This document shows positions 11,836 to 42,895 of a stretch of 64,000 nt of DNA, piece by piece. A program made the position numbers and the translations under genes. Each line of letters opens with the position of its first letter. The first letter of the stretch is position 1. The DNA is from Patescibacteria group bacterium UBA3531. GTDB lineage: Bacteria; Patescibacteriota; Minisyncoccia; Phycocordibacterales; UBA3531. Where the stretch lies: assembly GCA_002376885.1 (NCBI GenBank), contig DFOW01000001.1, positions 15,381-79,380 on the forward strand, read 5' to 3'. Under the pieces are notes generated by a model. The model was not told the DNA's origin. It did no database searches and was given only the letters and a program-made list of their open reading frames with translations.

Positions 11836-11862
11836 ATGTACAGTATACATTTTTCATTATTA

Positions 11863-14844: not shown

Positions 14845-14876
14845 TAAAAAAACACCCTGACGCTTTCTCGCCAGGG
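14845..14876 (-). terminator. rho-independent terminator (minus strand) upstream of the GNAT gene
   Basis: Minus strand: GCCCUGGCG-AGAAAG-CGUCAGGG followed by UGUUUUUUUACCC. Confidence 0.55.
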
Positions 14877-15118
14877 CATTCCTCAGACTAGTGTTGTTAG
14901 CTTTTATATAACCATAAGAGTAAGAGAATCTTGACCAGGCGAAACAGCCTCCTGTGCTTCGGTGCACACGAGATATGAAATCCCCGCATTCATTTTTCGC
15001 AAAAATTCTCTTTGCATAATTAAAAAATACCCTGTTTAGGGTATTTGTCAAGAGGACAGCCCCGGTCGCAACATTAACGACCGGGGCTGTGTCAACTTGA
15101 GAAGGCGCGGTAGAGTGC

Positions 15119-15491: not shown

Positions 15492-15649
15492 CCCAATATT
15501 ATGAATATATACCGAACAAAAACACTGTTCATGCGAACCACGCAATTTATGTGTGGGCGTCTTGGCGTAGTCATTTCTACCGTACACCGTTTTTGTGCCA
15601 GGCAATATGTTCTGAGGGCTTAAATTCTCATCTCTAATCTGAGCGTTTG

Positions 15650-15686
15650 AAACATCTTGTCTGGCTGACAAGATGTTTTTGTTCTT
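15650..15686 (+). terminator. intrinsic terminator/attenuator inside the 5' leader of the ABC exporter gene
   Basis: Perfect 11-bp stem AAACATCTTGTC-TGGCTG-ACAAGATGTTT followed by TTGTTCTTTC, ending about 20 nt before the SD GAGAGGG and the ATG at 15707. Confidence 0.6.
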
Positions 15687-15706
15687 TCACAACGAGAGGG
15701 TTAACC

Positions 15707-17548
15707 ATGGAAAAGCGCTTGCGTAAGTACTGCGACGATCTTGCTGAAACGCGGGAAGTGATTCAGTGGATCAAGAGTGAATTTGTCACTCAAGAGGCAT
15801 GGGCATGGGCAAAGAAGATGTTCTTTGTTTTTGCTATCATGATCGGCCTTGACGCACTCCAGCCGTTTGCGGTTCGGTATGTGTTTGATGGGCTCGTTTC
15901 GGGCAACTCTTCATGGGTTATCTTTGGCTTCGTTGGTTTTCTTGTGTGCTTTACGGCACAGAAGGTTACTGACTATCTGAAGAACACCTATCGGGAGTGG
16001 TTCATTGGTCTTAACATTGCAACCATCGATCGTCGTATTACCGAGCTTTTCTTCGAGAAGTCGCTTGGTCAATACGTTACCCATAGTTCTCTTTTGAACG
16101 TGGCGACGATGGACCGCGGGAGGAGCAGTATCAACAACATTCAGGGTACGCTCGTTTTTTACGGGACCTCTTCCTTTTTGTACATGACACTGTCTTGGGT
16201 TGCTGTTGCTCTCTTGAGTCCGCTCTCGGGCGCGCTCTTTTTGCTAGTTGCAACCATCTACCTTCTTTCGGGTTTTTATCTGAACAGTCGTGTAGAAACG
16301 GAGTGTCACGAAATTGAGGAAGATTTTAGGCGTCTTCGTCGTCACCGCTTTGAACGGTGGGAAAAGCTTGAGCGTGTTGCGCTCACTGGAAAGAAGCATC
16401 ACGAGCTTTCCTTCATGACGGAGCGCTTTGACGACATCCTTTCCAAAGACCGAGCATTTTGGTTGGGATTTATTCGTCACTGTGGTTTACGTGAAGGAGT
16501 GAACATTCTGGTGCTTGCGCTCATCTTTGGGATCGGCGCATGGAATGTGTGGACCGGAGTGTGGAGTGTGGGACTTTTGTACCCACTCTACAGTTTGTCG
16601 TCTCGCATCAGTCATAACATGTGGCAGATTGGCGACATTTATCTGGATCTTTCACGTGAGGTTCCTCGTGTTCGCTCAATGATGCGTGCACTCTCGCTCA
16701 CACCAGAAGTGACTGACGCCCCGAACGCGCAAGAGCTTGACCTTACACGTGCTCCGGAAATTCGGTTTGAGGGGGTCTCGCACCGATACCCAGCAGAAGA
16801 CACACGCACTGCAAACGATGGTGTACACACTCTGAAGAATGTCTCGTTTGAGATTGGGCAGGGTGAGAAGCTTGCTGTCATTGGGCCAAGCGGCGCTGGT
16901 AAAACCAGCATTGCAAAACTCCTTTTGCGGTACATGGATCCTGAAGAGGGTGCCATTACTGTAAACGGTATCAGCCTGAAAGACATTGCGCTTTCTTCGT
17001 GGATGCGTCATGTGGGAGTAATTGCCCAAGACCCGCAAGTGTTCGACAACACGTTGCGTTACAACATTACGTATGGTCTTTCCGAAGATCATCGGGAGGA
17101 AATCAAAGACGAAGACGTATGGCATTTGATGAAGCTTCTTCATATCGATTTTGGAAAGCGACTCACTGCAGGACTTGAAACCCGAGTCGGCAGAAGCGGT
17201 ATGAAGCTTTCGGGTGGAGAAGCACAACGCCTTATGATTGGAGCGGCGGCAATCAAGCGCCCCCACTTCATGATCATTGATGAGGCAACCAGCAGTCTCG
17301 ATTCTACAACCGAGAAGGAGGTCCAGAAGGGATTGGCAGATGTGCTTTCGGGTGATGTTGGTGCTCTTGTGATTGCGCATCGGCTTTCAACCGTACGAGA
17401 CCTGTGTGATAAGTTCATGGTACTGAAGCGCAGTACCGACGCGAACACCACTCCGCAGGTTGAAGCAATTGCCGGGAGCTTTGAGGAGCTCTACGAACTC
17501 TCTCCTACGTTCAGGCGTCTATGTGATGACCAAGGGGTCATCATTTAG
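15707..17548 (+). CDS. ABC transporter, fused permease/ATP-binding exporter (type I half-transporter)
   Basis: N-terminal 6-TM domain. Walker A GPSGAGKTS, ABC signature LSGGEAQRL, Walker B MIIDEATSSLD and H-loop. Preferred start MEKRLRKY with SD. The track start at 15647 lies inside the terminator hairpin. Confidence 0.85.
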   Translation: MEKRLRKYCDDLAETREVIQWIKSEFVTQEAWAWAKKMFFVFAIMIGLDALQPFAVRYVFDGLVSGNSSWVIFGFVGFLVCFTAQKVTDYLKNTYREWFIGLNIATIDRRITELFFEKSLGQYVTHSSLLNVATMDRGRSSINNIQGTLVFYGTSSFLYMTLSWVAVALLSPLSGALFLLVATIYLLSGFYLNSRVETECHEIEEDFRRLRRHRFERWEKLERVALTGKKHHELSFMTERFDDILSKDRAFWLGFIRHCGLREGVNILVLALIFGIGAWNVWTGVWSVGLLYPLYSLSSRISHNMWQIGDIYLDLSREVPRVRSMMRALSLTPEVTDAPNAQELDLTRAPEIRFEGVSHRYPAEDTRTANDGVHTLKNVSFEIGQGEKLAVIGPSGAGKTSIAKLLLRYMDPEEGAITVNGISLKDIALSSWMRHVGVIAQDPQVFDNTLRYNITYGLSEDHREEIKDEDVWHLMKLLHIDFGKRLTAGLETRVGRSGMKLSGGEAQRLMIGAAAIKRPHFMIIDEATSSLDSTTEKEVQKGLADVLSGDVGALVIAHRLSTVRDLCDKFMVLKRSTDANTTPQVEAIAGSFEELYELSPTFRRLCDDQGVII

Positions 17549-18123: not shown

Positions 18124-19506
18124 CTAAAGCCCTAGCTCCTTTTTTTGCTCGGGTGAAAGTTCTGACGGGGCGTCTACTACTGACGTTGCCCCTCCTCGTG
18201 TCATAGGGAATGCTTGGACTTCTCGCAAGTATTCCTCCCCTGCCAAAATCATTACGTTACGTTCCACACCAATCGCAATTCCTCCGTGTGGTGGTGTTCC
18301 AAAAGTAAACGCATCAAGTAAGTGCCCAATGCTTTCTTTTAAGTCTTCTGGGCCATAACCCATGGTTTTATATACTGCCTCCAAAACATCTTTTTTATGG
18401 ATTCGAATTCCTCCGCCCCCTACTTCAAACCCATTACAGACAAGGTCGTACTGGAGCGACAAAAGATTTTCGGTATCTTCGCCTTTCAATAATTTTTCTT
18501 CATCTTCTTTACGTGGTGCAGTAAAAGGGTTATGGCTAAAGGTCCATTTGTCCTTGCCTTCTTCTGTTCGTTCAAACACTGGTTGGTCGATTACCCATGC
18601 GTATGCCAAGATTCTTTTTTGCTTTTCTTCATTGCTACGGAGATCAAACTTATCGTCTCCGTGTTTCTCGAGTGCTTCTTTATATGAGATTCGTGGGAAA
18701 GGCTTCTCTTTAATCGTGTATCCCATGCCCTCAACCGTTGTGGTAATCATCTCTTCAATCAAGTTCAATACGTCTTCGCGATTTACAAACGACATTTCAA
18801 GGTCGATTTGTGTGTGTTCAAAACCACGGTCCGCTCGCAGGTCCTCATCTCGAATGGCTCGTGCTACTTGGAAGTACCTCTCAAACCCTGCTGTCATAAG
18901 CATTTGTTTATATTGTTGAGGAGATTGCGGGAGTGCGTAAAACTTTCCTTTATGAAGCCGAGATGGCACCACAAAGTCTCGTGATCCTTCTGGGGTACTC
19001 TTTGTTAAAAGTGGTGTCTCGATCTCAGTAAAATTATGGTTTTCTAAATAATCCCTACACAAACGCACAAACTCACTGCGGAGCTTCATATTTTTTTGCA
19101 TTCGAGGACGTCGCAAGTCTAGGTAGCGATACTTAAGACGGGTTTCTTCATCAATATCGTGCCCGTCTTCGTGTAGGTCAAACGGTGGAGTATCTGATTC
19201 GTTTAATACTTCAATATTTAAAATTTCAATCTCAATGTCTCCGTTTGGCTGATCTTCATTTACATTTTTTTCTGGACGTTTATTAACCTTGCCAGTAATA
19301 GCAAGTACCCATTCTGGGCGGACAGTGTCGGCAACTTTTACAGCCTCCTCGTGATTTGGAAGCGCTACCATTTGTACATTTCCGGTTACATCACGTAAAT
19401 CCAAAAAAACCATCTTGCCTTGATCACGACGAACATCTACCCATCCCATGGTAGTTACCTCTTGATCTATATGCTCGTGTAAATCTTTTATAAGTGTGCG
19501 TTTCAT
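18124..19506 (-). CDS. aspS: aspartyl-tRNA synthetase (short form lacking GAD insertion domain)
   Basis: Class IIb motifs FVVPSRLHKGKFYALPQSPQQYKQMLM...ERYFQVARAIRDEDLRADRGFEHTQIDLEMSF and GGGIRIH. 460 aa, against about 590 for the bacterial type. Confidence 0.85.
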   Translation of the reverse strand: MKRTLIKDLHEHIDQEVTTMGWVDVRRDQGKMVFLDLRDVTGNVQMVALPNHEEAVKVADTVRPEWVLAITGKVNKRPEKNVNEDQPNGDIEIEILNIEVLNESDTPPFDLHEDGHDIDEETRLKYRYLDLRRPRMQKNMKLRSEFVRLCRDYLENHNFTEIETPLLTKSTPEGSRDFVVPSRLHKGKFYALPQSPQQYKQMLMTAGFERYFQVARAIRDEDLRADRGFEHTQIDLEMSFVNREDVLNLIEEMITTTVEGMGYTIKEKPFPRISYKEALEKHGDDKFDLRSNEEKQKRILAYAWVIDQPVFERTEEGKDKWTFSHNPFTAPRKEDEEKLLKGEDTENLLSLQYDLVCNGFEVGGGGIRIHKKDVLEAVYKTMGYGPEDLKESIGHLLDAFTFGTPPHGGIAIGVERNVMILAGEEYLREVQAFPMTRGGATSVVDAPSELSPEQKKELGL

Positions 19507-19662: not shown

Positions 19663-20685
19663 TTAGGTAAAGTAATTAATTTTCATTGCTGCTTTGGCTT
19701 CTTCGAGTGTTTTTTGTGCTACCTTTTGCGCTTCTTCCGTTCCCTTTTCTAAAATCTTCATGACTTCGTCTGGATTTTTTGAAAGGTATTCCCTTTTTTC
19801 TCTAATTGGTTCGATAACATCTTGAAGAACTTTTGTGAGTCTTTTTTTAAGCTCTACATCTCCCAAGCCCCCTTTTTGATATTGCTCTTTTAGTTGTGCA
19901 ACTTGATCTTTATTTGGATCAAAAATATCTAAATAGGTAAACACGACATTGCCCTCTACTTTTCCTGGCTGGTCTACATTAATATGCTCTGGATCGGTGT
20001 ACATTTTCATTACCTTCTCTTCAATTTCTTCGTTTGAGTCTGAAAGTAAAATTGCATTGCCGAGAGACTTACTTGCCTTACCTTTGCCATCAATTCCTGG
20101 GAGGCGTGCACCATGCTCTGGGACCATTGCTTTTACTTTATTAAACACTGGTGGCTCACTAGGATAAAGGCGATTAAACTTTTCTACAATTTCATTGGTT
20201 TGTTCAATCATAGGGAGTTGATCTTCTCCAACCGGCACAAGTGTTGGTTTGAATGCCAAAATATCTGCTGCTTGCGATACCGGATACGCCAAAAATCCTG
20301 CGGGGACATCTTCGTCAAAGCCTTTCTCTTTCATTTCATTCTTTACGGTTGGGTTTCGTTTTAGACGGGCAAGAGTAACTAAGTTCAAAAAATAGGTAAA
20401 GAGTTCTGGGAGCGCGGTAATCTCTGATTGAATAAACAGGGTGGATTTTTGTGGATTGAGCCCTGCGGCCAGGTTGTCTACCGCCACTTCAAATACCGAG
20501 CTACGAACCTTCTCAGGATTGTCGGCATTATCGGTAAGAGCCTGAACATCAGCAATCATAACAAACTGCTTATGGCTGTCTTGGAGTTCTACCCGATTTT
20601 TTAAGGAACCAACAAGGTGGCCCAAATGGAGCTTTCCGGTGGGCCTATCCCCCGTTAAAATTGTCTGAACATTATCTTTGTCCAT
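19663..20685 (-). CDS. trpS: tryptophanyl-tRNA synthetase (AT-rich, native-composition copy)
   Basis: 340 aa. GDRPTGKLHLGHLVG (HIGH region), LFIQSE...LVPVGEDQ, KMSKS-like GKGKASKS. Confidence 0.8.
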   Translation of the reverse strand: MDKDNVQTILTGDRPTGKLHLGHLVGSLKNRVELQDSHKQFVMIADVQALTDNADNPEKVRSSVFEVAVDNLAAGLNPQKSTLFIQSEITALPELFTYFLNLVTLARLKRNPTVKNEMKEKGFDEDVPAGFLAYPVSQAADILAFKPTLVPVGEDQLPMIEQTNEIVEKFNRLYPSEPPVFNKVKAMVPEHGARLPGIDGKGKASKSLGNAILLSDSNEEIEEKVMKMYTDPEHINVDQPGKVEGNVVFTYLDIFDPNKDQVAQLKEQYQKGGLGDVELKKRLTKVLQDVIEPIREKREYLSKNPDEVMKILEKGTEEAQKVAQKTLEEAKAAMKINYFT

Positions 20686-20703: not shown

Positions 20704-21420
20704 TTAGACGTTGGTATCTATACGATTTTCCTGTCTTCTGCCGACAATACGTGCCCACCAAAAGACGATCGCTGTGGCAAAAAATGATACCAGAGCCAAG
20801 ATAAAAGCAATGGCCGTATTTGCAGCGCTCTCTGATGGAAAGTAAAAAAATGAAGCAATTCCCCAGGCAAAACCATCAAGAGAGAGTACATATGCTTTTG
20901 CACGAGCTATTTTTGATTCTGCAATACGTGCTGTTTGAAACAGTACAAAACCAAACACACTCCCCCATACAATACTGGCAACAGCAAGCGTCCATCTAAC
21001 AAACGGGTGCGCATTCCAAAAAATAAATCCACTGTCATCTATAATTGGCTCTCTGATTTCTTGAAATGAAAAAAAGAGTGTACTAATGATCGCAAAAACA
21101 ATAACACCTAAAATGTATGGTCGATATTTAAGTATTGCTTCTCGAGCCGCAACAAACTTTGTAAAAAAGATATGGAAGTGTACAAAATAAATAAGAATAG
21201 CAGACACAATAAACCATATACCCATTATTCTAAGATCGCCGCCCGAGAGATAGAACGGCAAGCTTTGTGTATACGCATACAATGCTACCCAAATAAAAAA
21301 GAGCATCATTCCCAAGACCTCTTTTTGACGTGTCCGCAAGTACGAAACAAAAACAGAAAACACCACGAGCGTCATAACAATCGCCATAATTAACTGGAAA
21401 AGCGCCGTAAGGTTTATCAT
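20704..21420 (-). CDS. stand-alone 7TM sensor-domain paralog (no kinase domain)
   Basis: 238 aa, about 7 TM helices. Collinear similarity to the N-terminal membrane domains of the adjacent histidine kinases and to 21422..22120. Confidence 0.5.
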   Translation of the reverse strand: MINLTALFQLIMAIVMTLVVFSVFVSYLRTRQKEVLGMMLFFIWVALYAYTQSLPFYLSGGDLRIMGIWFIVSAILIYFVHFHIFFTKFVAAREAILKYRPYILGVIVFAIISTLFFSFQEIREPIIDDSGFIFWNAHPFVRWTLAVASIVWGSVFGFVLFQTARIAESKIARAKAYVLSLDGFAWGIASFFYFPSESAANTAIAFILALVSFFATAIVFWWARIVGRRQENRIDTNV

Positions 21421-21421
21421 T

Positions 21422-22120
21422 CTATTCTAGATTGTTTGGCAAAAAGCGTGGCACCCAAAATACGAGCGCCGAGAGAATGAGCGAAATAAGAGTAATGATG
21501 ATTGCAAACGAGATTTGAGAAGGGTCTGCTGACGGAAAGTATAAAACCACTGCAAGTGCCCAAATAATCCCGTTTAAGCTCAAAATATAGGCTTTTACAC
21601 GCGCTACAAGGCTCTCTGTGAAGCGTGCACTATCGAAATAGGCAAAGCTCCATAAAAGTGCCGTAAAGCCAGTTATAAGGCTAAATGCCCAGATGGCGAG
21701 AGGGTTTACATTCCATAAAATCCATCCACTTTCATCGAGTATAGGAAGCCTAAAGTCGGTAATTAAAAGCGCCATAATAAACACCCCCGACACCACCACG
21801 AGCAATCTAAAGAAGGGTCTGATTCTTTTAATAAGAGGGTTTAGGTAAAACACTTTTGTTTCAAAAAGTACGAGAACCATGACCAAAACCAAATAAACTG
21901 AAAGAATAAATCCCCATGCAACGTACTCTAAGGTTCCTACAATTAAAAACGGTAAGCTTTGTGCAAACGAATACGCAGCAAACAATGTAAAAAAGAGTCC
22001 AAGCTTAGTAAGCTCTCCTTTATGTACATCTTTTTTCCAATACGAAACAAAAAGTCCAAGCGCTGCAATGCTTGAGACAAGCGCCATAATAAATTGGAGT
22101 GCAACCGTATAATTCAGCAT
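21422..22120 (-). CDS. stand-alone 7TM sensor-domain paralog
   Basis: 232 aa. Paralogous to 20704..21420 (LFQLIMAIV../LQFIMALV.. and conserved W..P motifs). Confidence 0.5.
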   Translation of the reverse strand: MLNYTVALQFIMALVSSIAALGLFVSYWKKDVHKGELTKLGLFFTLFAAYSFAQSLPFLIVGTLEYVAWGFILSVYLVLVMVLVLFETKVFYLNPLIKRIRPFFRLLVVVSGVFIMALLITDFRLPILDESGWILWNVNPLAIWAFSLITGFTALLWSFAYFDSARFTESLVARVKAYILSLNGIIWALAVVLYFPSADPSQISFAIIITLISLILSALVFWVPRFLPNNLE

Positions 22121-22141
22121 ACTCCTATGATACTAACGTTT

Positions 22142-23824
22142 CTAAATATCCTCAAGAAAATCTTTGATCTCTTTTCGTTTTTGCACATATTCCGGGTTTG
22201 GATACTCAACAATAAATCGAGTTCCTTTTCCGCGTCCTGTAGACTCTGCCCAAATTTTACCCCCATGCGCCTCAACAATTTGCTTTGCAACATAGAGTCC
22301 CAATCCCCGCCCTTCGGTGTGCAATCTAAATGATCCTTGTGTTCGACTAAACTTCTCAAAAAGTCTACTCATCATCTCTGGCTGGATTCCCATTCCGGTA
22401 TCGGTAATAGATGTTCTGATTACTTTGTCTTGCGTGTCATTTTCAATATCAATTTTAATGGTTCCTCCTGCTGGTGTGTACTTAATAGCGTTATCAAGAA
22501 TGTTTGAATACACTTGTTCCAACTTTTCTCTGTCCCCTTCTATAATGTAATTCCCGCCAAGCGAGGCATTTAAAATTACATCAAACTTTTGTTCTTTAAG
22601 AGTGTCTCTAAAGTATTCAATCGAGGCACTTACCACATTGCGCACATTAGTTTTATCAAAAACGTATTTCATCTCCCCCTTCTCGATCCGAGAGATGTTA
22701 GTAAACTCCTGAATCACAAGCACGAGTCGCTGGCTCCCTTGAAAGATTTGATCGATTGCATTTGTTTGTTTTTTGTTATCAATTTTTCCAAACGCACCCT
22801 CAAGGAGCATTGAGGCGTATCCTTTAATCACCGTAAGGGGGGTTCTTAATTGGTGGGATGTAATAGATACAAAATCAGACTTCTCGATATCAATTTGCTC
22901 AAGGCGCTTGTTGGCAGTTTGAAGCTTTATTGCTAACTGTTCCATCTCCTCCCGCAAGTCAACCTCTTTTAAGAGTCCGCGAACCAAGTAAAAACTAAAT
23001 CCAGATACCACAAGGAAGATGGCTGTTTTAAGTGCTGTTTCAACGGGTCCTTCTGCAACAAAAATCTGAAGCAAAAGAATCACGACCATGAGTGCAATAA
23101 AGAATTGGAGCGCAACAATTTTAAAGTCCCACAACTTGTGCCGAATAATGGCGTAAGCAATAAACGATACAAAAATAAGAGTACCCACTGGTCCCATCCA
23201 GTCATTCCCTTGTACCCCAAAAGCTGGAAGAACAAGGTTAGTTAAAAGCCCTAAAACGATCGAAATTCCGGTTCCGGTAACAATAAATTTAAGTTGGTTT
23301 TTAACGTTTCCTGATGCAGTGAAGTATTTTTTAGTAAGCCATACAAGACCACCAAAAAAGTATGCAAACACAAACACTGTGTAATACCAAAATGCCCATC
23401 CAAATTCTTGTGCTTTTGCATACGGCGCAATCTCGGTTACATCAGTAATTACAGAACGCGGAATCCCTGGACTCAAAATAAGAAAAATAAGAACAATCAT
23501 TGACCCAATAACAATCCATGCTTGTCGTTTATCAAGCTTTTTATCTTCTGTTCCAAAATAATATCCAAAAAAATAAAACGCTACTGAGAAGATTGCGGCA
23601 ATCATATAGTTCATGTCACTCCAAAAAAGAGTGAGCGCATTTACCCCTGGCTGAATATAAAAGTTAATACCAATAGCCCAAATTCCTACCCCCGTAATGG
23701 TGAGCACGAAAAAGATACTACTTTTAAGTTTGCTACGAAGATAGATAAGAGACGCCAAAATAAAGTTCGTAACCGAGACGATTGCTAAAATAATGGTTCT
23801 AAAATCTACTCCTAAAAATTCCAT
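22142..23824 (-). CDS. sensor histidine kinase with N-terminal 7TM domain (HisKA + HATPase_c)
   Basis: H-box ITSHQLRTPLTVIKGY, N-box NILDNAIKYT, G1 DTGMGI, G2 GRGLGLYVAKQIVEAHGG. About 250 aa of polytopic N-terminus. Confidence 0.85.
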   Translation of the reverse strand: MEFLGVDFRTIILAIVSVTNFILASLIYLRSKLKSSIFFVLTITGVGIWAIGINFYIQPGVNALTLFWSDMNYMIAAIFSVAFYFFGYYFGTEDKKLDKRQAWIVIGSMIVLIFLILSPGIPRSVITDVTEIAPYAKAQEFGWAFWYYTVFVFAYFFGGLVWLTKKYFTASGNVKNQLKFIVTGTGISIVLGLLTNLVLPAFGVQGNDWMGPVGTLIFVSFIAYAIIRHKLWDFKIVALQFFIALMVVILLLQIFVAEGPVETALKTAIFLVVSGFSFYLVRGLLKEVDLREEMEQLAIKLQTANKRLEQIDIEKSDFVSITSHQLRTPLTVIKGYASMLLEGAFGKIDNKKQTNAIDQIFQGSQRLVLVIQEFTNISRIEKGEMKYVFDKTNVRNVVSASIEYFRDTLKEQKFDVILNASLGGNYIIEGDREKLEQVYSNILDNAIKYTPAGGTIKIDIENDTQDKVIRTSITDTGMGIQPEMMSRLFEKFSRTQGSFRLHTEGRGLGLYVAKQIVEAHGGKIWAESTGRGKGTRFIVEYPNPEYVQKRKEIKDFLEDI

Positions 23825-23825
23825 A

Positions 23826-25511
23826 TTAGCGTGTACTTATTTCGGTTACTGTTTCTGGAATCTCGACCCTGTGGCGTGCCACAAACTCGGCGAGTTCTAA
23901 ATGGAAGGTGCTCCCCGCACCCTCTCCTTTTGACTCCACCCAAATCTTTCCCCCATGCGCACGAACAATTTGCCGTGCAACATACAATCCCAATCCACGT
24001 CCTTCTTTACGTAATTTTTCTGCAGATTCGGTACGAGTATATTTTTGGAAGAGTTTTTCTTGTGCCTCTTTGCTAATACCAATCCCGTGATCTTTTACGC
24101 TCAAGTACACTTTGTGATCTCGTTTTTTAAGTGCTACTTCAATATCTGTGCCTTTAGGACTGTACTTAATGGCATTATCTATTAAGTTATTGATTACTTG
24201 GCGTAACTTAAGCGCATCTCCAATAACTGGATACTGCTGGCCTTCTCCGATATGAATTTTTAAGCGCTCGCCAACCTCAGGGGACGCTGCCTTAAGCTCG
24301 TTTACCACACTCCATAAAAGTGTCGCTACCTCAATACGGGTAAACTTATACGACATCTTCCCTTGTTCGATTCGTGAAATATTAAGAAAGTCTTCAATCA
24401 TACCAACGAGTCTTTCGCTCGCATCAAAAATATTACGGATAACTTTTTTAGCCTCTTTATTTTCGATCGGTCCAAATGTTCCCTCTAAAAGCATGGCGGC
24501 GTACCCCTTAATTACCGTAAGTGGTGTACGCAATTGGTGCGATGCGATTGACACAAACGTTGATTTTTCGACATCAATTTCTTTAAGTCGAATATTGGCA
24601 CGTTCAAGCTCTTCAGTAAGCTCTCTCACATCCTCCCGAGCCTCAACTTCTTTAAAAATTCCACGAATAAGTAAGTAACTAAAGATAGCGGTAAAAATAA
24701 AGGCGATAGATTTAAAAATAACCTTACTTAATACATCTGCAGCAACAAAAATATCTACCAAAAGAGTAAGTAACACTGCCACTACCACAATCTCGGTAAT
24801 AACGAGTTTAAAGTCCCATAACTCGCGCCTGGTAATGGCATATCCCACAATCATTAAAAGCACGATCGCAACAAGCGGCCCAAGCCACACCACGTTAGTA
24901 ACTCCAAAGAGTGGTAGAAAAAGATTTGCTGTTACCGCAACCGTGATAGAGAAGAAGGTTCCAAAAATAATGTAACGGAGTCTAATGCGCAAATCATTAC
25001 TTACTCGAGAATATTTATAAATAAGGATTGGAAACATTCCAAAAAGATACACGGCCAAAAGCGGTAAGTAGACTTTAAAAAAGAGTGGGCCATACACCAC
25101 CACATTTTGCCCGCCTTGAAACACAACATCACGAGCTGTTGCCCCTGGCGACAAAGTAAACAATAAAAGAGCAATCCATGGGCCAAATATAAAGATCTTT
25201 TGTAAAGGACTTATAACTCTATTCTCTCGTCCAATATAAAAGGCAAACAAAAACAAAAAGAGCGCCATTACAATGGGCGGGATAAATAAATAATACCCCC
25301 ACACAGGGGCAAGCCCCGTTACACTAGAGAGCTGCAAAAAGGCTCGCCCTAAAACCCAAAAACCGGCTGCAATACCTACAATCCCAAAATATCGAGTTGA
25401 GCGCTTTGTTTTATCGTGCCGATAAATACTAATCCCAATTGCAAACGATGCAAGTGCAACTAACAATAAAAGAAGTGTAATGAGTGTGTTGGCATTAAGT
25501 TCGGGAATCAT
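23826..25511 (-). CDS. sensor histidine kinase with N-terminal 7TM domain (paralog 2)
   Basis: IASHQLRTPLTVIKGY, NLIDNAIKYS, DHGIGI, GRGLGLYVARQIVRAHGG. Separated from HK1 by 1 nt. Confidence 0.85.
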   Translation of the reverse strand: MIPELNANTLITLLLLLVALASFAIGISIYRHDKTKRSTRYFGIVGIAAGFWVLGRAFLQLSSVTGLAPVWGYYLFIPPIVMALFLFLFAFYIGRENRVISPLQKIFIFGPWIALLLFTLSPGATARDVVFQGGQNVVVYGPLFFKVYLPLLAVYLFGMFPILIYKYSRVSNDLRIRLRYIIFGTFFSITVAVTANLFLPLFGVTNVVWLGPLVAIVLLMIVGYAITRRELWDFKLVITEIVVVAVLLTLLVDIFVAADVLSKVIFKSIAFIFTAIFSYLLIRGIFKEVEAREDVRELTEELERANIRLKEIDVEKSTFVSIASHQLRTPLTVIKGYAAMLLEGTFGPIENKEAKKVIRNIFDASERLVGMIEDFLNISRIEQGKMSYKFTRIEVATLLWSVVNELKAASPEVGERLKIHIGEGQQYPVIGDALKLRQVINNLIDNAIKYSPKGTDIEVALKKRDHKVYLSVKDHGIGISKEAQEKLFQKYTRTESAEKLRKEGRGLGLYVARQIVRAHGGKIWVESKGEGAGSTFHLELAEFVARHRVEIPETVTEISTR

Positions 25512-27181
25512 TATGTAGCTTGATTATTAGCGGGCGTAGCCTCTTCTTCTCGCTTTCGTTCTTGTACTGGGTTTGTGTTGGGTGGAACAAACGGAAGCTC
25601 TACACTAAACACACTTCCCTTTCCGTCACCTTCTGACTCTGCCCAAATGCGCCCTCCATGCGCCTCAACCATTTCTCGTGCAATATAGAGTCCTAACCCA
25701 GAACCACCGACTTGAATCTTCCCCACATCTTTTGCTCGGCTGAACCGCTTAAAGAGGCGTCCCGTTGTTTCCTTATTCATTCCAATACCCCTATCAACAA
25801 CTGATATTTTTATTTTTTTCTGCTCTTTGTTGTTTTCAAGAATAATTTTTACCTCTCCTTGTTTGCTGTATTTAATAGCGTTATCAACAAGGTTAGTGAT
25901 AATTTGCCGAATTTTTCCATAATCTGCTGTTACATGAATGTCCCCTTCTTGTTTTATTTCTGACACAAGCGTAAGTCCGGCAGACGAAGCAACGTGCTTC
26001 ATGCTCTCAGTTATTTCAGTAACAAGTTTTCTAACATCTACAATTCCAAAGTCATATTTCATGCGTCCTTGTTCAATGCGTGACACATTCAAAAAGTCAT
26101 CCAAAATAACATTTTGCCGTTGTGCAGAATCAAACACACGCCCCAGCATTTCTTTTGCCTTGTCGTTAATTTCTCCAAGAGACCCTTCCAACATCAAAGA
26201 GACAGCGTTTCGAATTTCTGAAATAGGAGTTTTTAGTTGGTGTGTTGCAATAGACAAGAACTCCGACTTCTCCAAATTAAGCCGCTCCAATTGCTTATTC
26301 GCCGCCGCAAGAAGCTCCCGAGCCTGCACTTCTCTAATAACGTTACGAATCAAGAGGATACCAATAATGATCGTTCCCAACAAAAGAAGTCCATCAGAAA
26401 TAATTTGTGAGAAGTCGTCTTGCGTCAGTATCCTTAAGAAAATGAATCCCCAAAGCATGAAAACAAAGAACTCTGCCAAAACAACTTTAGTATTAAAGAG
26501 CTGGTGCTTCAAAACAGCATAAAAGAGTGCTGACACCATAAAAATGACTGTTATCTGTCCCGTCCAGTTATAATCAAAATTTCCTGTTAGAGGTAAAGAT
26601 AAGTTTGTTGTAGTCCCCAAAATAGCCGTTATTAGAATTCCAAAAAAAACATAAGCAACTCGTTTTCGTTTTAAACCTGTATTGAAATAAAGTTTTTTCC
26701 CAAGAATAAAAAAGACCCATGCAAAGGTAAGGTTTAGATAAACTGCGTACATATAATGGTATAAATCTGTGAAAACAATTGTATGCTCTTTGCCGGGAGT
26801 TACAATAATTTCTCTAATCAAAAAACCATCCCACAACGAGACAAAAACTATAAAAAAGTATGGGAAAACAATTAAAAGCTTTCTCTTAAGGTCAAAGGCA
26901 TATCCTTCGTCCATAAAAATATGGGCAAAAAATATAAGGGTAATTGGTGTTCCTGCGGCGGCAAAATAAAGCACTTTTGCGTAAAGTAGTCGTAACGATT
27001 CACTTTCTACACCCCTGAACAAAACCATTGAAATTATCCATCCCAAAACAGCCAAAATAAACATCAAGAACCAAAAGTTGGTCCTTGACTTGTAATCAGA
27101 CAAAAAGACAATGGTACCGAAAGCAAGCGTAATCAAACCAACTGTTGAAATCGCTATATTTATAAGGTCAAAGTTAAACAT
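25511..27181 (-). CDS. sensor histidine kinase with N-terminal 7TM domain (paralog 3)
   Basis: IATHQLKTPISEIRN, NLVDNAIKYS, DRGIGM, GSGLGLYIAREMVEAHGG. Start overlaps the HK2 stop. Confidence 0.85.
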   Translation of the reverse strand: MFNFDLINIAISTVGLITLAFGTIVFLSDYKSRTNFWFLMFILAVLGWIISMVLFRGVESESLRLLYAKVLYFAAAGTPITLIFFAHIFMDEGYAFDLKRKLLIVFPYFFIVFVSLWDGFLIREIIVTPGKEHTIVFTDLYHYMYAVYLNLTFAWVFFILGKKLYFNTGLKRKRVAYVFFGILITAILGTTTNLSLPLTGNFDYNWTGQITVIFMVSALFYAVLKHQLFNTKVVLAEFFVFMLWGFIFLRILTQDDFSQIISDGLLLLGTIIIGILLIRNVIREVQARELLAAANKQLERLNLEKSEFLSIATHQLKTPISEIRNAVSLMLEGSLGEINDKAKEMLGRVFDSAQRQNVILDDFLNVSRIEQGRMKYDFGIVDVRKLVTEITESMKHVASSAGLTLVSEIKQEGDIHVTADYGKIRQIITNLVDNAIKYSKQGEVKIILENNKEQKKIKISVVDRGIGMNKETTGRLFKRFSRAKDVGKIQVGGSGLGLYIAREMVEAHGGRIWAESEGDGKGSVFSVELPFVPPNTNPVQERKREEEATPANNQAT

Positions 27182-38659: not shown

Positions 38660-39454
38660 TTAAAGTTTTATATTCTTTTTATCTGTGACAAGAGAGAAGG
38701 TCTCATCATATCTACCTGCTGAAACAAAAAGTGGGTAGAAACTTATACTTGAAAAAATAACTGATTTTCCATTTTTACCGAGCGGTGTGTTTTTTTTAAT
38801 TTTTTGAAACTCTTTAAATTTATACTGATGAAATGGTTTGGGTGTTTTTAAGACGTCTTTTACTATATAAAGCTCTTTGTTGCGATGTCGTTTTCTCTGA
38901 TTTTTTAACATTTCTAGATTGCCAAGGATTTCCTCTATATCTCTTGCTACTATTTTATATCTCCTAGTTGATTTATCTGGTCCATATTCTAGAGAAACAC
39001 CGCATTTTGATGCACCTATTAAAGACCCCTTACCAAATTTATTTTTTCTAATTAGGGCTACTTTTGATATTGCAGAACAAGAAAGAAGTCTTTTTTTATT
39101 TTTATTAAAATCTGTAGTTATAAGAAGTCTATCTAGTTTTGAACTTGTACCATGAATATCTAAAACATAATCACATTTAGATATAATTTTTCGGATATGA
39201 TATGCGAGTTGTTGTTCCTGATTCCCACTTTTTTTACCAGGAAAACTTCTATTGAGATCTTGATGGATGTGTCGTGTCTTTGACTTCACTCCTTCTGGGT
39301 GAGCAATTATAAAAGTTATTGAGCCCTTTTTAAGGTCAATATTTTTTCTTAAGTATTTTATAGCCTCAATACCAATTGGTTCATCACCGTGGACGGCACC
39401 GACAATGGCAATTGATGGCCCTTTGATTTTACTTGTAGTTTTATACAGTTTCAT
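38660..39454 (-). CDS. succinylglutamate desuccinylase/aspartoacylase (AstE/AspA) family zinc deacylase
   Basis: SIAIVGAVHGDEPIG (the GxHGNE zinc motif of the AstE_AspA family). 264 aa. AT-rich, unlike the GC-rich neighbours. Confidence 0.65.
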   Translation of the reverse strand: MKLYKTTSKIKGPSIAIVGAVHGDEPIGIEAIKYLRKNIDLKKGSITFIIAHPEGVKSKTRHIHQDLNRSFPGKKSGNQEQQLAYHIRKIISKCDYVLDIHGTSSKLDRLLITTDFNKNKKRLLSCSAISKVALIRKNKFGKGSLIGASKCGVSLEYGPDKSTRRYKIVARDIEEILGNLEMLKNQRKRHRNKELYIVKDVLKTPKPFHQYKFKEFQKIKKNTPLGKNGKSVIFSSISFYPLFVSAGRYDETFSLVTDKKNIKL

Positions 39455-39518: not shown

Positions 39519-40277
39519 CTAGAGGTACTTCGCACACAGATCTTTGCATGTGAAGGCCCACGTAGCCACTTCGGCGGGACACCCGCTTGCACCGAAGACT
39601 CGAAACTCGATGGTCCCGTGCCCAGTGATTCGGATGTAGTGCCAGCAGCTTCGCAGATCTTCCGACCATCCGTCGGCGCGTGCCTTCTCGTGAACTTCTT
39701 CCCATCCCTTGAACTTGGGAGGTCGGAAGTTAGGGGCGACAACCTGGTAGAGCCTGTGACGCTCTCCGTTCGAGTGGTCCCCGACATTTCGAAGCTCGTC
39801 GACATGATCCACTACCCCATTGTAGACACGCAGAGCAGATTCATGATCGGGCATACCCACATGGATGTGGGTTCCCGTTACACGACATGCCGCATCGAGA
39901 ACTTCTCTGGGCATGTCTTTGGTGATCTCCGCGTACCTGCCAGTCGGGTCGGGGTACACCGAGAGACACATACCAGGAGGGGCTACCTCCAAGAATTGCA
40001 CCGAGAGCCCTAGGAACGAACATGCTCGGTTGAGCGCACGATCATTCCTCATGAGAGTACCGAGCACGTCTTTGGGAAGAACAGGCCCGATACGATCTTC
40101 AATCTGACATGCCGACAGCTCGAAACCGAATTCCTCACACTCTCCAAGAGAGGCAAGAACTTCGTGAGCTCTCGGAACGATCTCTCCCTTGTCATCGGTA
40201 ACGAAACGTTCCCGTTCGATACCGAGAAACAAGGACCTCTCTCTGTCGAAAGAGAAGCGATCCAAGAATTCTTTCAC
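39519..40277 (-). CDS. GCS2/YbdK-like carboxylate-amine ligase, C-terminally short (252 aa)
   Basis: LFLGIERERF (the GCS2 FTLGIELE metal-binding motif) and HIHVGM (the HVHVG motif) at YbdK-like spacing. GTG start 8 nt after GAAGGAGG. Preceded by a T-box leader. Confidence 0.45.
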   Translation of the reverse strand: MKEFLDRFSFDRERSLFLGIERERFVTDDKGEIVPRAHEVLASLGECEEFGFELSACQIEDRIGPVLPKDVLGTLMRNDRALNRACSFLGLSVQFLEVAPPGMCLSVYPDPTGRYAEITKDMPREVLDAACRVTGTHIHVGMPDHESALRVYNGVVDHVDELRNVGDHSNGERHRLYQVVAPNFRPPKFKGWEEVHEKARADGWSEDLRSCWHYIRITGHGTIEFRVFGASGCPAEVATWAFTCKDLCAKYL

Positions 40278-40299: not shown

Positions 40300-40575
40300 A
40301 CTATTCGGGAACAAAAAATCCCGTCCTCACGACACAACCATCTGTATTGTGTCAAAAGGACGAGAGTTTTCCCGCGGTACCACCTTTTTTATCCCATTAA
40401 TGAAATGGGATCACTTAACTGACTCATAAAGATATCAGTTTTCCTATGATTACGGAGGAAGCCGAGCTACCACTATCGCAGTAGCCATCCTGCCTACGGA
40501 GGCGATACAAGCCCAACCCCGAATCCTTGTTCGGGACCTGCATCAAGGATTTTATTTCTTAAATATACTTCTATT
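40300..40575 (-). promoter_or_regulatory. T-box riboswitch leader (tRNA-sensing transcription attenuator)
   Basis: Minus-strand RNA carries the T-box sequence AAAAAAGGUGGUACCGCGG (consensus AGGGUGGNACCGCG, N=U). Antiterminator: AAGG/CCUU helix with a UGGUACC bulge and a CGGGA-AAAC-UCUCG helix. A competing 17-bp terminator hairpin CUCGUCCUUUUGACACA...UGUGUCGUGAGGACGGG plus AUUUUUUGUU follows. There is a Stem-III-like hairpin GAUCCCAUU-UCAUU-AAUGGGAU and a distal Stem-I hairpin GGCUACUGCGAUAGUGGUAGCUC. Confidence 0.75.
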
Positions 40576-40579
40576 GAAA

Positions 40580-40609
40580 GTATAAACACCAACAGTTTAA
40601 CTGTCAATA
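40580..40609 (-). promoter_or_regulatory. sigma-70-like promoter TTGACA-N18-TATACT driving the T-box leader, overlapped by the 13-bp palindrome ACAGTTTAACTGT
   Basis: Minus sense: CTGTATTGACAGTTAAACTGTTGGTGTTTATACTTTC. The palindrome spans the -35 and spacer region. Confidence 0.5.
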
Positions 40610-40620
40610 CAGAAAAGCAG

Positions 40621-40652
40621 GGGGCGCAGACCTTGACGCCTGCGCCCCCACT
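40621..40652 (-). terminator. rho-independent terminator of the trpS2/CM-MTase operon
   Basis: Minus sense: GGGGGCGCAG-GCGUCAAGGU-CUGCGCCCCC followed by UGCUUUUCUGU. Confidence 0.65.
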
Positions 40653-40654: not shown

Positions 40655-41776
40655 CTAGACACGAGTCGCTACCACGATCGTGTATGCACCATGCTCATTA
40701 CCTTCGTTGGAAAGACCTCGGTCAATCTTCTCGATCTCTTCACCGAGAAGCCCCTCCACCAGAAGGTTGCCTGGAAGCACGGACGACACTGTCGGATAGG
40801 TGTACATTTCGTCGATGACGAAATGTTGGTCGCTCACCATACTCTCGACGTCCGCAAAGGTGTACGGCCGTGCGAACACGGAGAACACCTCAGGTCCCGT
40901 CTCGGTATCCAGGTGGACATCGAGGCATTCCTCGTCGAGGTTGATCTGGGCTGCGAGACCCAGGGGCCACGGAAGGAATTGCTTGTAGACGAGAGCATCC
41001 AGGTTATAGAACGAGGCGAACAGCTTTCCACCCGGGGAGAGGACGTCGTGAAGGTTCGCAAGAAGCTTGCGGATCTCCCTGATGTCACTCCCTGTGCCCA
41101 TGGAAAGCGCTGCAAACGAGACAGAAGTCTGCGGGAACGAAAGGTTTCCTTCGTCCAGGTCATGGACGAAGAACTCGGCATTTCCGATGGACTTCTTCTT
41201 GGCCTCTCTGATCATGTGAGGACTGATGTCATAGCCCACCACACGATCGAACCTTGCCGCAAGGCGAGCGGCCTGAATCCCTGTAGCACAGCCAAGATCA
41301 AGGGCGCGCTCACGCTCGTCCTTGCTCATGTTCTCGACGATTCGATCGAGTACCTCTCTTTCGAACCTGAGATACGAGTCCGTGCTGAAGGTACCCCCCA
41401 GGAACTTCTCCTCGTACCATGGGGCGACACGCTCGGTTAGGTCGAGAAGCGCTTGCTTACGATCCCTCGGAGTCTTCTCCAGGGAATGGTCTCCCTGGAG
41501 AAGTCGAAGCTGTTCGTGACACGACTGAAGGATGGAGAAGTACATCAGCGCCCCAGCAAAATGGGAACGTACTCCGTACTTCTTTGCCCACTCCTGGGCT
41601 GCCTTCATCACACGAGCATCCTCGATTTCCTCTCGGATGATCGGCTGACCCTGGGAACGCTTGTAACGTTCCACCTGTGCCGCAAGCTCCATCCGACGAG
41701 CAAAGATCGCAAGGATCGTCTCGTCGACTGCCCCAAGCCTCTTTGCGAGGATCTCGAGGTTGGGTAGTTCTGTCAT
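40655..41776 (-). CDS. chorismate mutase (AroQ/CM_2) domain fused to class I SAM-dependent methyltransferase
   Basis: The N-terminal 90 aa, LEILAKRLGAVDETILAIFARRMELAAQVERYKRSQGQPIIREEIEDARVM, align to AroQ catalytic positions (Arg11, Arg28, Lys39, Glu52, Gln88 equivalents). Central MTase motif I LDLGCATGIQAARLAARFDRVVGYDIS and motif II/III GGKLFASF. Start is 13 nt after the trpS2 stop. Confidence 0.6.
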   Translation of the reverse strand: MTELPNLEILAKRLGAVDETILAIFARRMELAAQVERYKRSQGQPIIREEIEDARVMKAAQEWAKKYGVRSHFAGALMYFSILQSCHEQLRLLQGDHSLEKTPRDRKQALLDLTERVAPWYEEKFLGGTFSTDSYLRFEREVLDRIVENMSKDERERALDLGCATGIQAARLAARFDRVVGYDISPHMIREAKKKSIGNAEFFVHDLDEGNLSFPQTSVSFAALSMGTGSDIREIRKLLANLHDVLSPGGKLFASFYNLDALVYKQFLPWPLGLAAQINLDEECLDVHLDTETGPEVFSVFARPYTFADVESMVSDQHFVIDEMYTYPTVSSVLPGNLLVEGLLGEEIEKIDRGLSNEGNEHGAYTIVVATRV

Positions 41777-41789: not shown

Positions 41790-42788
41790 CTAGTACTGCC
41801 TGATTCCCATCAGGTCGCGTACTTGTTCGGTCGTTTCCTTGATCATGGCTCGGGCGGTCTTTCCACCTTCTACCAGAACTTCTTCGACGTAATCTCGCTT
41901 CTTGGCGAGTTCACGTCGTCTCTCCTGGAACGGCTCGATGACCGACGCAAGGCTTTCGATGAGGAGAGTCTTGCATTCACCGCAACCGATCGAGGCAGAT
42001 TGACACGCATGTGCAATCTCTCGGTTGCCTTTTTCGCCAGGAGTGATGAGCTCGTGAACCGGATACACGGACTTGCATCCGTGATACGGGTCACCGGGAT
42101 CGGTTCGTGTCCTTCGTGCAGGGTCCGTGACTCCGCGCTTCTTGTACAAGTTACCGATTTCGGCGATAGGAAGATTGATGTCGACAGCGTTACTGGCGTC
42201 TGACTTTCCCATCTTCCCACCGTCGAGACCAGGCACCTTCACCATTTCGGAGAGCATTCGCGGTTCTGCGAAAACATCTCCGAAGCGGCTGTTGAAACGA
42301 CGAGCAATGGAGCGCGCCATCTCAACGTTCGGGACCTGGTCCTCGCCACACGGCACAAGGGTCGCCTGCGGACCAAGAATGTCCGCAGCCATCAGCACGG
42401 GGTAGGAAACCAAACCGAGACTCACACGGTCCGGATTCCTCTTCACCAGATCCTTGAAGGTCGGAACCCTCTGCAGATCTCCAAGCGGTTGAAACATGGA
42501 GAGATACAGGAAGAGTTCCACCGTCTCGGGAACGCTCGACTGAGCGTAGATGACGGACTGCTCCGGGTCGAGACCCGCAGCGAGGTAGTCCGTAACGATC
42601 TCGAGGAGGTTCTTTCGAAGCTCTTCGGGGTCGTCGAGCGTCGTCAAGGTGTGCAGATCTGCAACGAAGTAGAGGCAGCGATTTCCTTCCGCCTGATGCT
42701 CCACAAAGTTCCTCACTGCACCCAGGAAGTTTCCGAAATGGAGTCTTCCTGTAGCCCTGATTCCAGAAAGCACGGTCTCTTTATTCAC
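41790..42788 (-). CDS. trpS: tryptophanyl-tRNA synthetase, GC-rich second copy (possible Fe-S type)
   Basis: LSGIRATGRLHFGNFLGAV (HIGH region), SYPVLMAADIL, KMGKS. C-terminal Cys cluster HGC...HAC...CGEC. GTG start after GGAGGAG. Confidence 0.8.
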   Translation of the reverse strand: MNKETVLSGIRATGRLHFGNFLGAVRNFVEHQAEGNRCLYFVADLHTLTTLDDPEELRKNLLEIVTDYLAAGLDPEQSVIYAQSSVPETVELFLYLSMFQPLGDLQRVPTFKDLVKRNPDRVSLGLVSYPVLMAADILGPQATLVPCGEDQVPNVEMARSIARRFNSRFGDVFAEPRMLSEMVKVPGLDGGKMGKSDASNAVDINLPIAEIGNLYKKRGVTDPARRTRTDPGDPYHGCKSVYPVHELITPGEKGNREIAHACQSASIGCGECKTLLIESLASVIEPFQERRRELAKKRDYVEEVLVEGGKTARAMIKETTEQVRDLMGIRQY

Positions 42789-42895
42789 GTCTACTCCTCC
42801 GAAGGTTTCTAACTCTAGGTGACAAGCACGATGCTTGGCAAAGACCTTGTTCTGATCAGAAGTCTAACAATTAAAACTTTGTTGTCAATGTTTAA

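Follow-up and report, generated by a model that had tools for sequence, protein, structure and literature searches.

Why does a single genomic region of a patescibacterium encode two complete tryptophanyl-tRNA synthetases (TrpRS) of opposite base composition? The question is raised by a 64,000-nucleotide stretch of DNA (the window) from Patescibacteria group bacterium UBA3531, a small marine bacterium (assembly GCA_002376885.1, contig DFOW01000001.1, positions 15,381 to 79,380 of the forward strand), in which one TrpRS gene (copy A, 19663..20685, minus strand) has the composition of the backbone and the other (copy B, 41790..42788, minus strand) lies in a GC-rich tract. The original prediction, made from the sequence alone, had suggested that the GC-rich copy might be an auxiliary enzyme conferring self-resistance to tryptophan-analogue antibiotics. 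Our analysis indicates that both are, to judge by their sequences, intact bacterial TrpRS genes of different subfamilies, neither of them foreign to the phylum. Copy B is part of a recurrent tryptophan-related gene set and very probably not an antibiotic-resistance gene, since it sits inside this gene set in a GC-rich imported stretch. The explanation that we favor, with moderate confidence, is that copy A is a resident enzyme without a metal cluster, that copy B is a module-borne iron-sulfur (Fe-S) enzyme on an imported or overwritten tract, and that the two serve as conditional isozymes.

Two TrpRS genes of different subfamilies

Copy A (340 aa, ATG start) and copy B (332 aa, GTG start behind the ribosome-binding site GGAGGAG) both match the Pfam family tRNA-synt_1b and score 261.8 and 255.6 bits, respectively, against the trpS equivalog model TIGR00233 (cut-off 176.75), in agreement with the original prediction of two full-length TrpRS genes. 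The tyrS models give only 31–77 bits for the two copies, under the models' own cut-offs, so neither protein turns out to be a different class I aminoacyl-tRNA synthetase (aaRS). The signature motifs read HLGH (20617-20628) and KASKS (20065-20079) in copy A, and HFGN (42729-42740) and KMGKS (42201-42215) in copy B; the two proteins share 33% identity. The opposite composition of the genes was also borne out: copy A (GC 0.410; GC content at third codon positions, GC3, 0.355) is inside the backbone GC3 range of 0.264–0.399, whereas copy B has GC 0.556 and GC3 0.637. The best matches of both copies come from the Parcubacteria/Paceibacteria group. A coarse neighbor-joining tree, of the kind originally proposed as a check, places copy A within the type-II clade beside TrpRS II from Deinococcus radiodurans (DrTrpRS II), and copy B within an Fe-S clade of the candidate phyla radiation (CPR).

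Copy B appears by its motif to be of the [4Fe-4S] type. Its anticodon-binding domain contains the arrangement C238-x23-C262-x6-C269-x2-C272 (41973..42077, minus strand), which is the C-terminal Cys cluster noticed originally, and all four cysteines are aligned with the [4Fe-4S] ligands Cys236, Cys259, Cys266 and Cys269 of TrpRS from Thermotoga maritima (TM0492, 2G36). The spacing lies within the published Fe-S TrpRS motif C-x(21-24)-C-x6-C-x2-C (Han et al. 2010, PMC2954223), and the motif is present in 120/120 copy B homologs retrieved, as opposed to 0/120 retrieved for copy A. 2G36 is also the closest solved structure for copy B (E-value 1.2e-75, 43% identity). The two enzymes differ, however, in several respects: T. 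maritima TrpRS groups with type-II enzymes in the coarse tree, whereas the CPR clade of copy B is separate and nearer to canonical enzymes; copy B has M129 where T. maritima TrpRS has Gln, and KMGKS instead of KMSKS; and copy B belongs to a conserved operon (described below) unreported for Thermotoga. TrpRS proteins of Giovannoni-, Kaiser-, Liptonbacteria and other Paceibacterota are 67–71% identical to copy B.

Copy A is the resident, vertically inherited TrpRS, as follows from its host-like codon usage and from a kinase-7TM-trpS-aspS arrangement common to relatives. It is the final gene of an array of two 7TM-only proteins and three tandem HisKA_7TM sensor kinases (20704..27181, minus strand), as had been proposed, and is followed by a conserved open reading frame (ORF) for a 460-aa aspartyl-tRNA synthetase (AspRS; 18124..19506, minus strand). 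The nearest copy A relative (P0122, loci L005/L006) has the same gene order, with Pfam domains confirmed on the L005 homologs and collinear identities of 72% for TrpRS, 72% for the 7TM protein and 71, 67 and 47% for the kinases; a Lloydbacteria contig (L094) has the order kinase, trpS, one unannotated ORF, aspS. The AspRS of the window shares 66% identity with the enzyme of Parcubacteria group bacterium GW2011_GWA2_40_14 (locus L031, 14033-15454) and only 33% with AspRS of the otherwise collinear L005 (9051-10385), so one lineage seems to have exchanged its aspS for another version.

TrpRS proteins of Lloyd- and Wolfebacteria and other Patescibacteria are 64–72% identical to copy A, which contains no Cys residues. 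Its closest solved structure is DrTrpRS II (2A4M/1YI8, E-value 4e-117, 57% identity), with which it shares the HLGH motif, Asp at the position of I8, and the substitutions H43Q and M129Q. DrTrpRS II is reportedly a stress-induced auxiliary TrpRS that partners nitric oxide synthase (NOS). No NOS-like gene was seen among the neighbors examined at the copy A locus, and, unlike the accessory enzyme of D. radiodurans, the copy A type holds the conserved trpS-aspS position in many Patescibacteria and looks like an ordinary resident enzyme. The labels "native" and "auxiliary" of the original prediction therefore fail to map onto known families: copy A is indeed resident, but it is this backbone copy that resembles the classic auxiliary enzyme. 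Copy A also has KASKS where the D. radiodurans TrpRS II type has KMSKS; among its 120 closest homologs this variant occurs once, in copy A itself. The other KASKS case that we have seen is the type-II copy of locus L020 (12419-13462), which there also coexists with an Fe-S TrpRS.

An Fe-S-type enzyme in a recurrent tryptophan gene set

The gene of copy B (trpS-B) is followed after 13 nt by a gene for a 373-aa protein (40655..41776, minus strand), in which an AroQ/CM_2 chorismate mutase (CM) domain (~aa 1–95) is fused to a class I S-adenosylmethionine (SAM) methyltransferase (MT) domain (~aa 135–373). A promoter-like site lies ahead of trpS-B (TTGACA-16-TAGACT with an upstream TG, 42861..42888, minus strand; 10/12 matches, a consensus match only), and an intrinsic terminator (12-bp stem with 10 G-C pairs and a U-tract; 40620..40649, minus strand) stands after the CM::MT gene. 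On the basis of promoter-like sites and terminator, trpS-B and the fusion gene are predicted to form a two-gene operon, which agrees with the co-transcription originally suggested. The CM domain scores 42.4 bits against Pfam CM_2 (cut-off 27), and a profile of the fusion family matches the Escherichia coli CM (EcCM, 1ECM) over the whole domain with an E-value of 5e-13. The equivalents of EcCM R28, K39, E52, S84 and Q88 are kept, but the positions of R11', D48 and R51 are not; R13, R48 and R55 are conserved instead, and R28, K39, E52, S85, Q89, R13, R48 and R55 of the fusion each occur in 41–47 of 48 sequences. The MT domain matches Methyltransf_25/23/11, with a DLGCATG SAM-binding motif and an MT fold; the AlphaFold2 model of the fusion has a pLDDT of 93.6. 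The family evolves fast (36–44% identity where TrpRS is at 70%), its database names are all generic, and the literature searched contained no report linking a CM-methyltransferase fusion to trpS.

A census of the fusion gene in species-representative genomes, covering ±8 kb around pattern-matched loci, yielded at least 31 full-length loci; the counts in this paragraph are among the matches listed. The loci belong to Patescibacteria, Peregrinibacteria, Poribacteria, Nitrospinota and Alpha-/Gammaproteobacteria. TrpRS is encoded in the flanks of 19 of the 31, at 14 loci on the same strand as the fusion and at operon-like spacing, and three more loci end on the side where trpS normally sits. Fusion loci without TrpRS are mainly from high-GC proteobacteria; at the TrpRS-less proteobacterial loci L022, L025, L032, L033, L037 and L016 the neighbors are heterogeneous and show no pattern, with spurious high-GC ORFs adding noise. 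The flanks of 12 fusion loci contain a tRNA-Trp(CCA) gene, which is immediately beside the fusion or TrpRS gene in eight. Its discriminator is G73 in 11 of these 12 tRNA genes; the sole A73 (archaeal-type) is that of L019 (15422-15496, minus strand), where the T-box (see below) has the matching U. The Fe-S motif is found in 16 module-linked TrpRS and is missing from 5 (L009, L017, L034-36). Seen from the side of the synthetases, the fusion is adjacent to 4/4 B-type TrpRS sampled (P0002, P0004, P0035, P0052), and it was not within the fetched flanks of the three A-type TrpRS sampled.

A second transcription unit begins close to the end of the trpS-B operon. Behind a promoter-like site (TTGACA-17-TATACT, 40579..40607, minus strand; 11/12 matches, a consensus match only) lies a putative T-box leader (40306..40555, minus strand). 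It combines a short Stem I with a conserved UUGGG element (UGG specifier and a following purine), the T-box sequence GGUGGUACCGCG and a terminator/antiterminator. A local search with the Rfam model RF00230 matched 40353-40555 on the minus strand with 58.1 bits (E-value 2.7e-11); as the gathering score is 93, the default Rfam scan of the window returned no match, and the T-box surfaced in E-value mode only. After the T-box motif AAGGUGGUACCGCGGG the leader has a strong stem and U6, and its folding is well separated from shuffled controls (z-score -5.4). Stem I comprises about 62–72 nt: in the alignment to RF00230, 87 consensus positions are skipped there and the window has 52 nt instead, and neither a canonical K-turn GA motif nor a distal platform was found in the leader by eye. 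Further sub-threshold RF00230 matches of 34–53 bits occur at eight loci besides the window, and the conserved core UCCUCCGUAAYCAUAGGAWAA picks up four more leaders; the class is present in about 12 module loci.

Comparison of these leaders revealed seven compensatory pairs in the lower Stem I helix and an invariant U.G pair directly under the (U/C)-UGG-G element, of which the UGG-G part, atop this helix, is invariant in 13 leaders. RNAalifold, applied to four Stem I sequences, supports the lower helix; it pairs part of the UUGG element because the upper hairpins align poorly, so the geometry of the specifier loop is ambiguous. The T-box acceptor base matches the discriminator of the local tRNA-Trp in 6/6 loci, as C:G with G73 in L010, L011 and L026, as U:A with A73 in L019, and as a U.G wobble with G73 in L031 and L014. 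Among the Val, Ile, Leu, Trp and Gly codon readings, only bacterial tRNA-Trp has G73 under the tRNA identity rules (see also Mukai et al. 2017, PMC5370408), which makes the leader a candidate sensor of tRNA-Trp. A Leu specifier (UUG/CUG) was ruled out: several leaders contain UGGC, which needs G73, whereas tRNA-Leu has A73. The T-box is real, although its score is under the Rfam threshold, and it probably senses tRNA-Trp; the original view that copy B adjoins a T-box-controlled gene is supported.

The window leader shares with RF00230 and the Trp T-boxes of Firmicutes the GGUGGUACCGCG sequence, the antiterminator/terminator, Stem II/IIA-B-like and Stem III elements, and the UGG plus purine. 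Its class differs from RF00230 in scoring 34–58 bits against the required 93, in the short Stem I and in having no obvious K-turn or distal platform. Its predicted target is different as well: a pair of genes for a ligase and a deacylase, instead of a gene for an aaRS, for biosynthesis or for transport. Leaders of this short-Stem-I class were observed in L007 (9460-9658, minus strand), L019 (8255-8475, plus strand), L017 (~9505, plus strand), L021 (~165, minus strand) and L026 (~5126, minus strand), where they precede other genes (in L007, e.g., one of the Glycos_transf_3 family) or directly follow the fusion gene. The class is missed by standard annotation because all of its members are far under the Rfam gathering threshold; no report of T-boxes in Patescibacteria was found in the literature searched.

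The first gene behind the T-box, and hence the one predicted to be controlled by it in place of TrpRS, encodes a 252-aa GCS2/YbdK-like carboxylate-amine ligase (39519..40277, minus strand; Pfam GCS2 25.6 bits, cut-off 21), with weak matches to NCBIfam YbdK-family models and no match in a sequence search of the PDB even at E <= 1. The second gene encodes a 264-aa zinc deacylase of the AstE/AspA family (M14-like; 38660..39454, minus strand; Pfam AstE_AspA_cat and Peptidase_M99), whose nearest solved relatives are aspartoacylase and aminoacylase-3. Homologs of the ligase (44–49% identity) stand behind T-boxes in L010, L011 and L031, and deacylase homologs accompany the ligase in L010, L011, L031 and L092. 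Both TrpRS copies and the AstE-like deacylase contain no Trp residues at all, which fits proteins that still need to be synthesized during Trp starvation. CPR TrpRS proteins without Trp residues have been described before (Mukai et al. 2017, PMC5370408).

Thus the module composed of trpS, CM::MT, Trp T-box, ligase, deacylase and often a tRNA-Trp gene recurs, and it is the context of every Fe-S-type TrpRS that we sampled in Parcubacteria (n=4). Both the arrangement of these elements and the divergent T-box class appear to be undescribed. A partial parallel is found in CPR Microgenomates, in which an archaeal-type TrpRS that forms an operon with tRNA-Trp(A73) coexists with a bacterial TrpRS (Mukai et al. 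2017, PMC5370408). The two systems have in common two TrpRS genes, a tRNA-Trp linked to trpS and hints of regulation by Trp availability. In the system described here, unlike in Microgenomates, both copies are of bacterial type, the partner is CM::MT instead of "ORF1", a T-box takes the place of the trp repressor, and G73 is found in 11/12 of the linked tRNA genes.

The module lies in DNA of foreign composition. The segment 39519-42788, with the ligase (GC3 0.589), the fusion (GC3 0.663) and copy B, has GC3 0.59–0.66, and a second foreign tract adjoins the module (34432-38540, minus strand; acyltransferase, MMPL-like and LolA-like genes; GC3 0.72–0.83). The deacylase segment (38660-39454) has GC3 0.20, under that of any backbone gene, yet it is located between the two GC-rich tracts. 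The simplest reading is a recombination in which one or more GC-richer relatives supplied DNA to a region that perhaps already had a module; the deacylase gene may be left over from the resident version of an older module, or a third donor may have supplied it.

Why two enzymes

Under the explanation that we favor, both enzymes would charge tRNA-Trp. The Fe-S enzyme (copy B) would work together with the Trp module, and the cluster-free copy A would keep up the supply of Trp-tRNA under conditions, such as oxic or iron-poor seawater, that do not allow an Fe-S cluster to be maintained. Redox regulation of the Fe-S copy, mentioned in the original prediction for some Fe-S TrpRS variants, is conceivable. 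Uncharged tRNA-Trp, as it builds up, would act through the T-box to turn on the ligase and the deacylase, and these could raise Trp availability, e.g. by releasing it from conjugates with acyl groups (N-acyl) or peptides. The window is one of several cases in which a single Fe-S TrpRS occurs together with a cluster-free one: the partner is canonical in L011, of type II in L020 and truncated in L031. Han et al. noted the same pairing, in that only one copy has the motif in genomes with several TrpRS genes, which suggests that the pairing is maintained and not accidental (PMC2954223). A division of labor between conditional isozymes thus has modest support, by analogy.

Several points weigh against this explanation. 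The division of labor itself is drawn by inference only, from the recurring Fe-S/cluster-free pairing and the analogy with other duplicated synthetases (PMC9437257), and the case for a role of the ligase under Trp starvation is weak. The KASKS motif of copy A could mean an altered or relaxed function. The module is not strictly tied to the Fe-S cluster, since the fusion is also found beside cluster-free TrpRS, and the census behind these counts extends ±8 kb around pattern-matched loci, at least 31 in number. The AT-rich deacylase gene is out of keeping with the GC-rich tract around it. Finally, L014, L020, L028 and L091 (the last with an acyltransferase nearby too) also have the module at a distance of a few kb from dnaJ, so the module, and with it the two-copy state, may be old in the lineage and only its sequence replaced; the tract may be a new insertion or a replacement in place, and the two-TrpRS state may accordingly be recent or old.

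The main rival to the isozyme explanation is neutral redundancy during displacement. The module would have arrived, or been replaced, by horizontal transfer together with its own TrpRS; the two enzymes would be equivalent, and one of them would eventually be lost. The tract of copy B is foreign in composition and shows no drift toward the host, copy A has the rare KASKS variant, and three TrpRS types occupy comparable positions in related genomes. The relative L031 (GW2011_GWA2_40_14) has an intact Fe-S TrpRS in its module and, beside aspS, a 289-aa canonical-type TrpRS remnant without the HIGH region (11929-12798), as the endpoint of a displacement would look. This remnant, whose start is overlapped by a 103-aa ORF (11730-12041) that is antitoxin-like by eye only, looks like a displaced synthetase gene. 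In the window, however, neither gene is shortened or has lost any of its catalytic and specificity residues, and the Fe-S plus cluster-free pairing recurs in L011 and L020 with different cluster-free partners. We regard transitional redundancy as a serious but rather unlikely alternative.

Copy B could also be specialized to a partner. The CM::MT protein would act on tRNA-Trp or Trp-tRNA-Trp, for instance by modifying the anticodon loop in a reaction that needs SAM and chorismate or prephenate, copy B would be adapted to the product, and copy A would serve the unmodified pool. The linkage of trpS, CM::MT and tRNA-Trp across phyla speaks for such a connection, as do the conserved CM-like site and the structural proximity of the MT domain to the tRNA wobble methyltransferase CmoM (8JOZ/4HTF; Foldseek ranks 2, 18 and 32, TM-score 0.71–0.74 normalized by PDB chain length). 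A precedent that joins chorismate to tRNA modification is the synthesis of cmo5U by CmoA, which uses prephenate and SAM. Han et al. speculated that the cluster recognizes a modified anticodon (PMC2954223). On the other hand, the Foldseek ranking is flat, and TM1389 (2AVN), ToxA, DhpI and further small-molecule methyltransferases score as high as CmoM or nearly so. A carboxy-SAM synthase of the CmoA type is not supported for the fusion: the top 50 Foldseek PDB matches do not include CmoA, and no CmoA model is among the NCBIfam matches listed. The fusion also occurs beside cluster-free TrpRS, and without a nearby TrpRS in Alpha- and Gammaproteobacteria, whereas no such partner is known to be required by Fe-S TrpRS of the T. 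maritima type. It is questionable, too, where chorismate would come from, as CPR bacteria are generally not known to have a shikimate pathway. Specialization to a partner is in our view improbable as the reason for two enzymes. We give a similarly low probability to the broader idea that CM::MT is a translation-coupled enzyme (e.g. for chorismate/prephenate- and SAM-dependent modification of tRNA-Trp or Trp-tRNA-Trp) which, together with the short-Stem-I Trp T-box and the ligase and deacylase, makes up a module for Trp decoding and salvage in CPR.

The self-resistance role proposed originally, in which copy B would provide immunity in an island that makes a Trp-analogue inhibitor of the indolmycin or chuangxinmycin type, or protect against such an inhibitor, we consider very unlikely. 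Antibiotic self-resistance copies of TrpRS are known, e.g. TrpRS1 of Streptomyces coelicolor and the indolmycin-resistance TrpRS of S. griseus, and inhibitor producers likewise have two TrpRS genes ~30% identical to each other, one of them in a horizontally acquired region (PMC9437257). The island of copy B also holds a methyltransferase, an ATP-dependent ligase and a hydrolase, and inhibition of TrpRS would trigger a Trp T-box as well. The pocket of copy B, however, argues otherwise. Indolmycin contacts H43, D132 and Q147 of TrpRS (bioRxiv 10.64898/2026.03.23.713518), and M129, D132, I133 and V141 are determinants for chuangxinmycin (PMC8814664). We mapped these residues with a BsTrpRS reference sequence, in whose numbering every published residue name that was checked is reproduced. 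Conserved in both copies are Q80, Y125, D132, I133, V141, D146 and Q147, plus the HIGH- and KMSKS-type motifs. Copy B in addition retains H43 and M129, with V143C and its KMGKS as further features, so no substitution was found in it at the inhibitor-contact residues His43, Gln147, Asp132 and Met129, and its pocket is of the sensitive type. H43N itself is said to confer indolmycin resistance. The check for resistance-associated substitutions identified H43Q and M129Q in copy A only, where they are clade-wide, being present in nearly all 120 type-II relatives of copy A and in DrTrpRS II.

The genomic context of copy B points in the same direction. B-type TrpRS with the same neighbors is common in Parcubacteria, often beside a tRNA-Trp gene, unlike the self-resistance enzymes. 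The gene sets for indolmycin (ind) and chuangxinmycin (cxm) include an aminotransferase, a pyridoxal phosphate (PLP)-dependent oxidase, and a reductase or P450, none of which is found in the module. The neighbors of copy B are the CM::MT fusion, the GCS2-like ligase, the AstE-like deacylase, the LolA-like protein, the MMPL-like transporter and an acyltransferase, and no recognizable biosynthetic gene set was found among the genes of the module and the adjoining tract. A small-molecule pathway built from the trio of methyltransferase, ligase and hydrolase is still conceivable, but the context looks like primary tryptophan and translation biology and not like a biosynthetic gene cluster. Of the originally suggested island of horizontal transfer or biosynthesis, the foreign composition of the tract is supported and the biosynthetic part is not.

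That the GC-rich tract is an assembly or binning artefact from another organism, as its very sharp GC steps at gene boundaries might suggest, has a negligible probability: the alternation of GC along the tract (0.62, 0.31, 0.55) would need several independent joins, and a chimera is excluded by three contigs from three assemblies that share the gene order across all composition junctions, namely an ENA contig (245 kb) identical to the window over 21 kb, an NCBI contig of a metagenome-assembled genome (MAG; GCA_002708165.1, 233 kb) that differs at 1 nt, and a JGI contig (69 kb) with the same order from the genes of ribosomal proteins L13 and S9 via grpE-dnaK-dnaJ and the tract out to the GC-rich acyltransferase, so copy B is not a contaminant. 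The fusion gene is present on at least eight contigs in the ENA, JGI and NCBI assemblies, and five more besides these three have been reported as similar.

The mosaic surroundings and their meaning

The outer edge of the foreign tract is marked by two adjoining paralogs of a PlsC-type acyltransferase with GC3 0.32 (33683-34363, minus strand) and 0.79 (34432-35091, minus strand), which look like a recombination scar from an exchange with a GC-rich relative. They are followed by a 776-aa MMPL/RND-like transporter (35229-37559, minus strand; GC 0.62), instead of which the ENA and JGI gene calls have opposite-strand ORFs, and by the LolA-like protein (37716-38540, minus strand; GC 0.59). On the other side of the module, a 200-aa ORF without a Pfam match (43969-44571, minus strand) is wedged between dnaK and dnaJ and overlaps both at its ends. 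DnaK of the window shares 65% identity with its counterpart in L014 (Candidatus Parcubacteria) and 70% with the one in L020 (a MAG); this comparison, the AspRS match to L031 and the best matches of both TrpRS copies place the genome in or near Parcubacteria/Paceibacteria. Other GC-rich patches (9966-11225, 13719-15177, 15647-17548 on the plus strand, and 32413-32826; GC3 0.54–0.66 where computed) encode, among others, a GNAT acetyltransferase and an ABC ATPase; few plus-strand ORFs of at least 120 aa do not shadow a minus-strand gene, and that of the ATPase is one of them. The mosaic character of the window extends well past the TrpRS tract.

Duplicated synthetases and Fe-S TrpRS have been known before; what is new here is the module context of the Fe-S TrpRS of Parcubacteria. 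At its current thresholds, Rfam overlooks an entire class of CPR T-box leaders, and these leaders, with the genes behind them, offer a handle on how auxotrophic CPR bacteria sense and respond to a shortage of Trp. The locus is likewise a handle on the displacement of synthetases, with both genes intact in the window and only a remnant of one kept in L031, and on the purpose of the [4Fe-4S] cluster of TrpRS. If it is true that the CM::MT fusion is coupled to translation, this could explain why some TrpRS have an Fe-S cluster beside the anticodon, a question that has been open since 2010.

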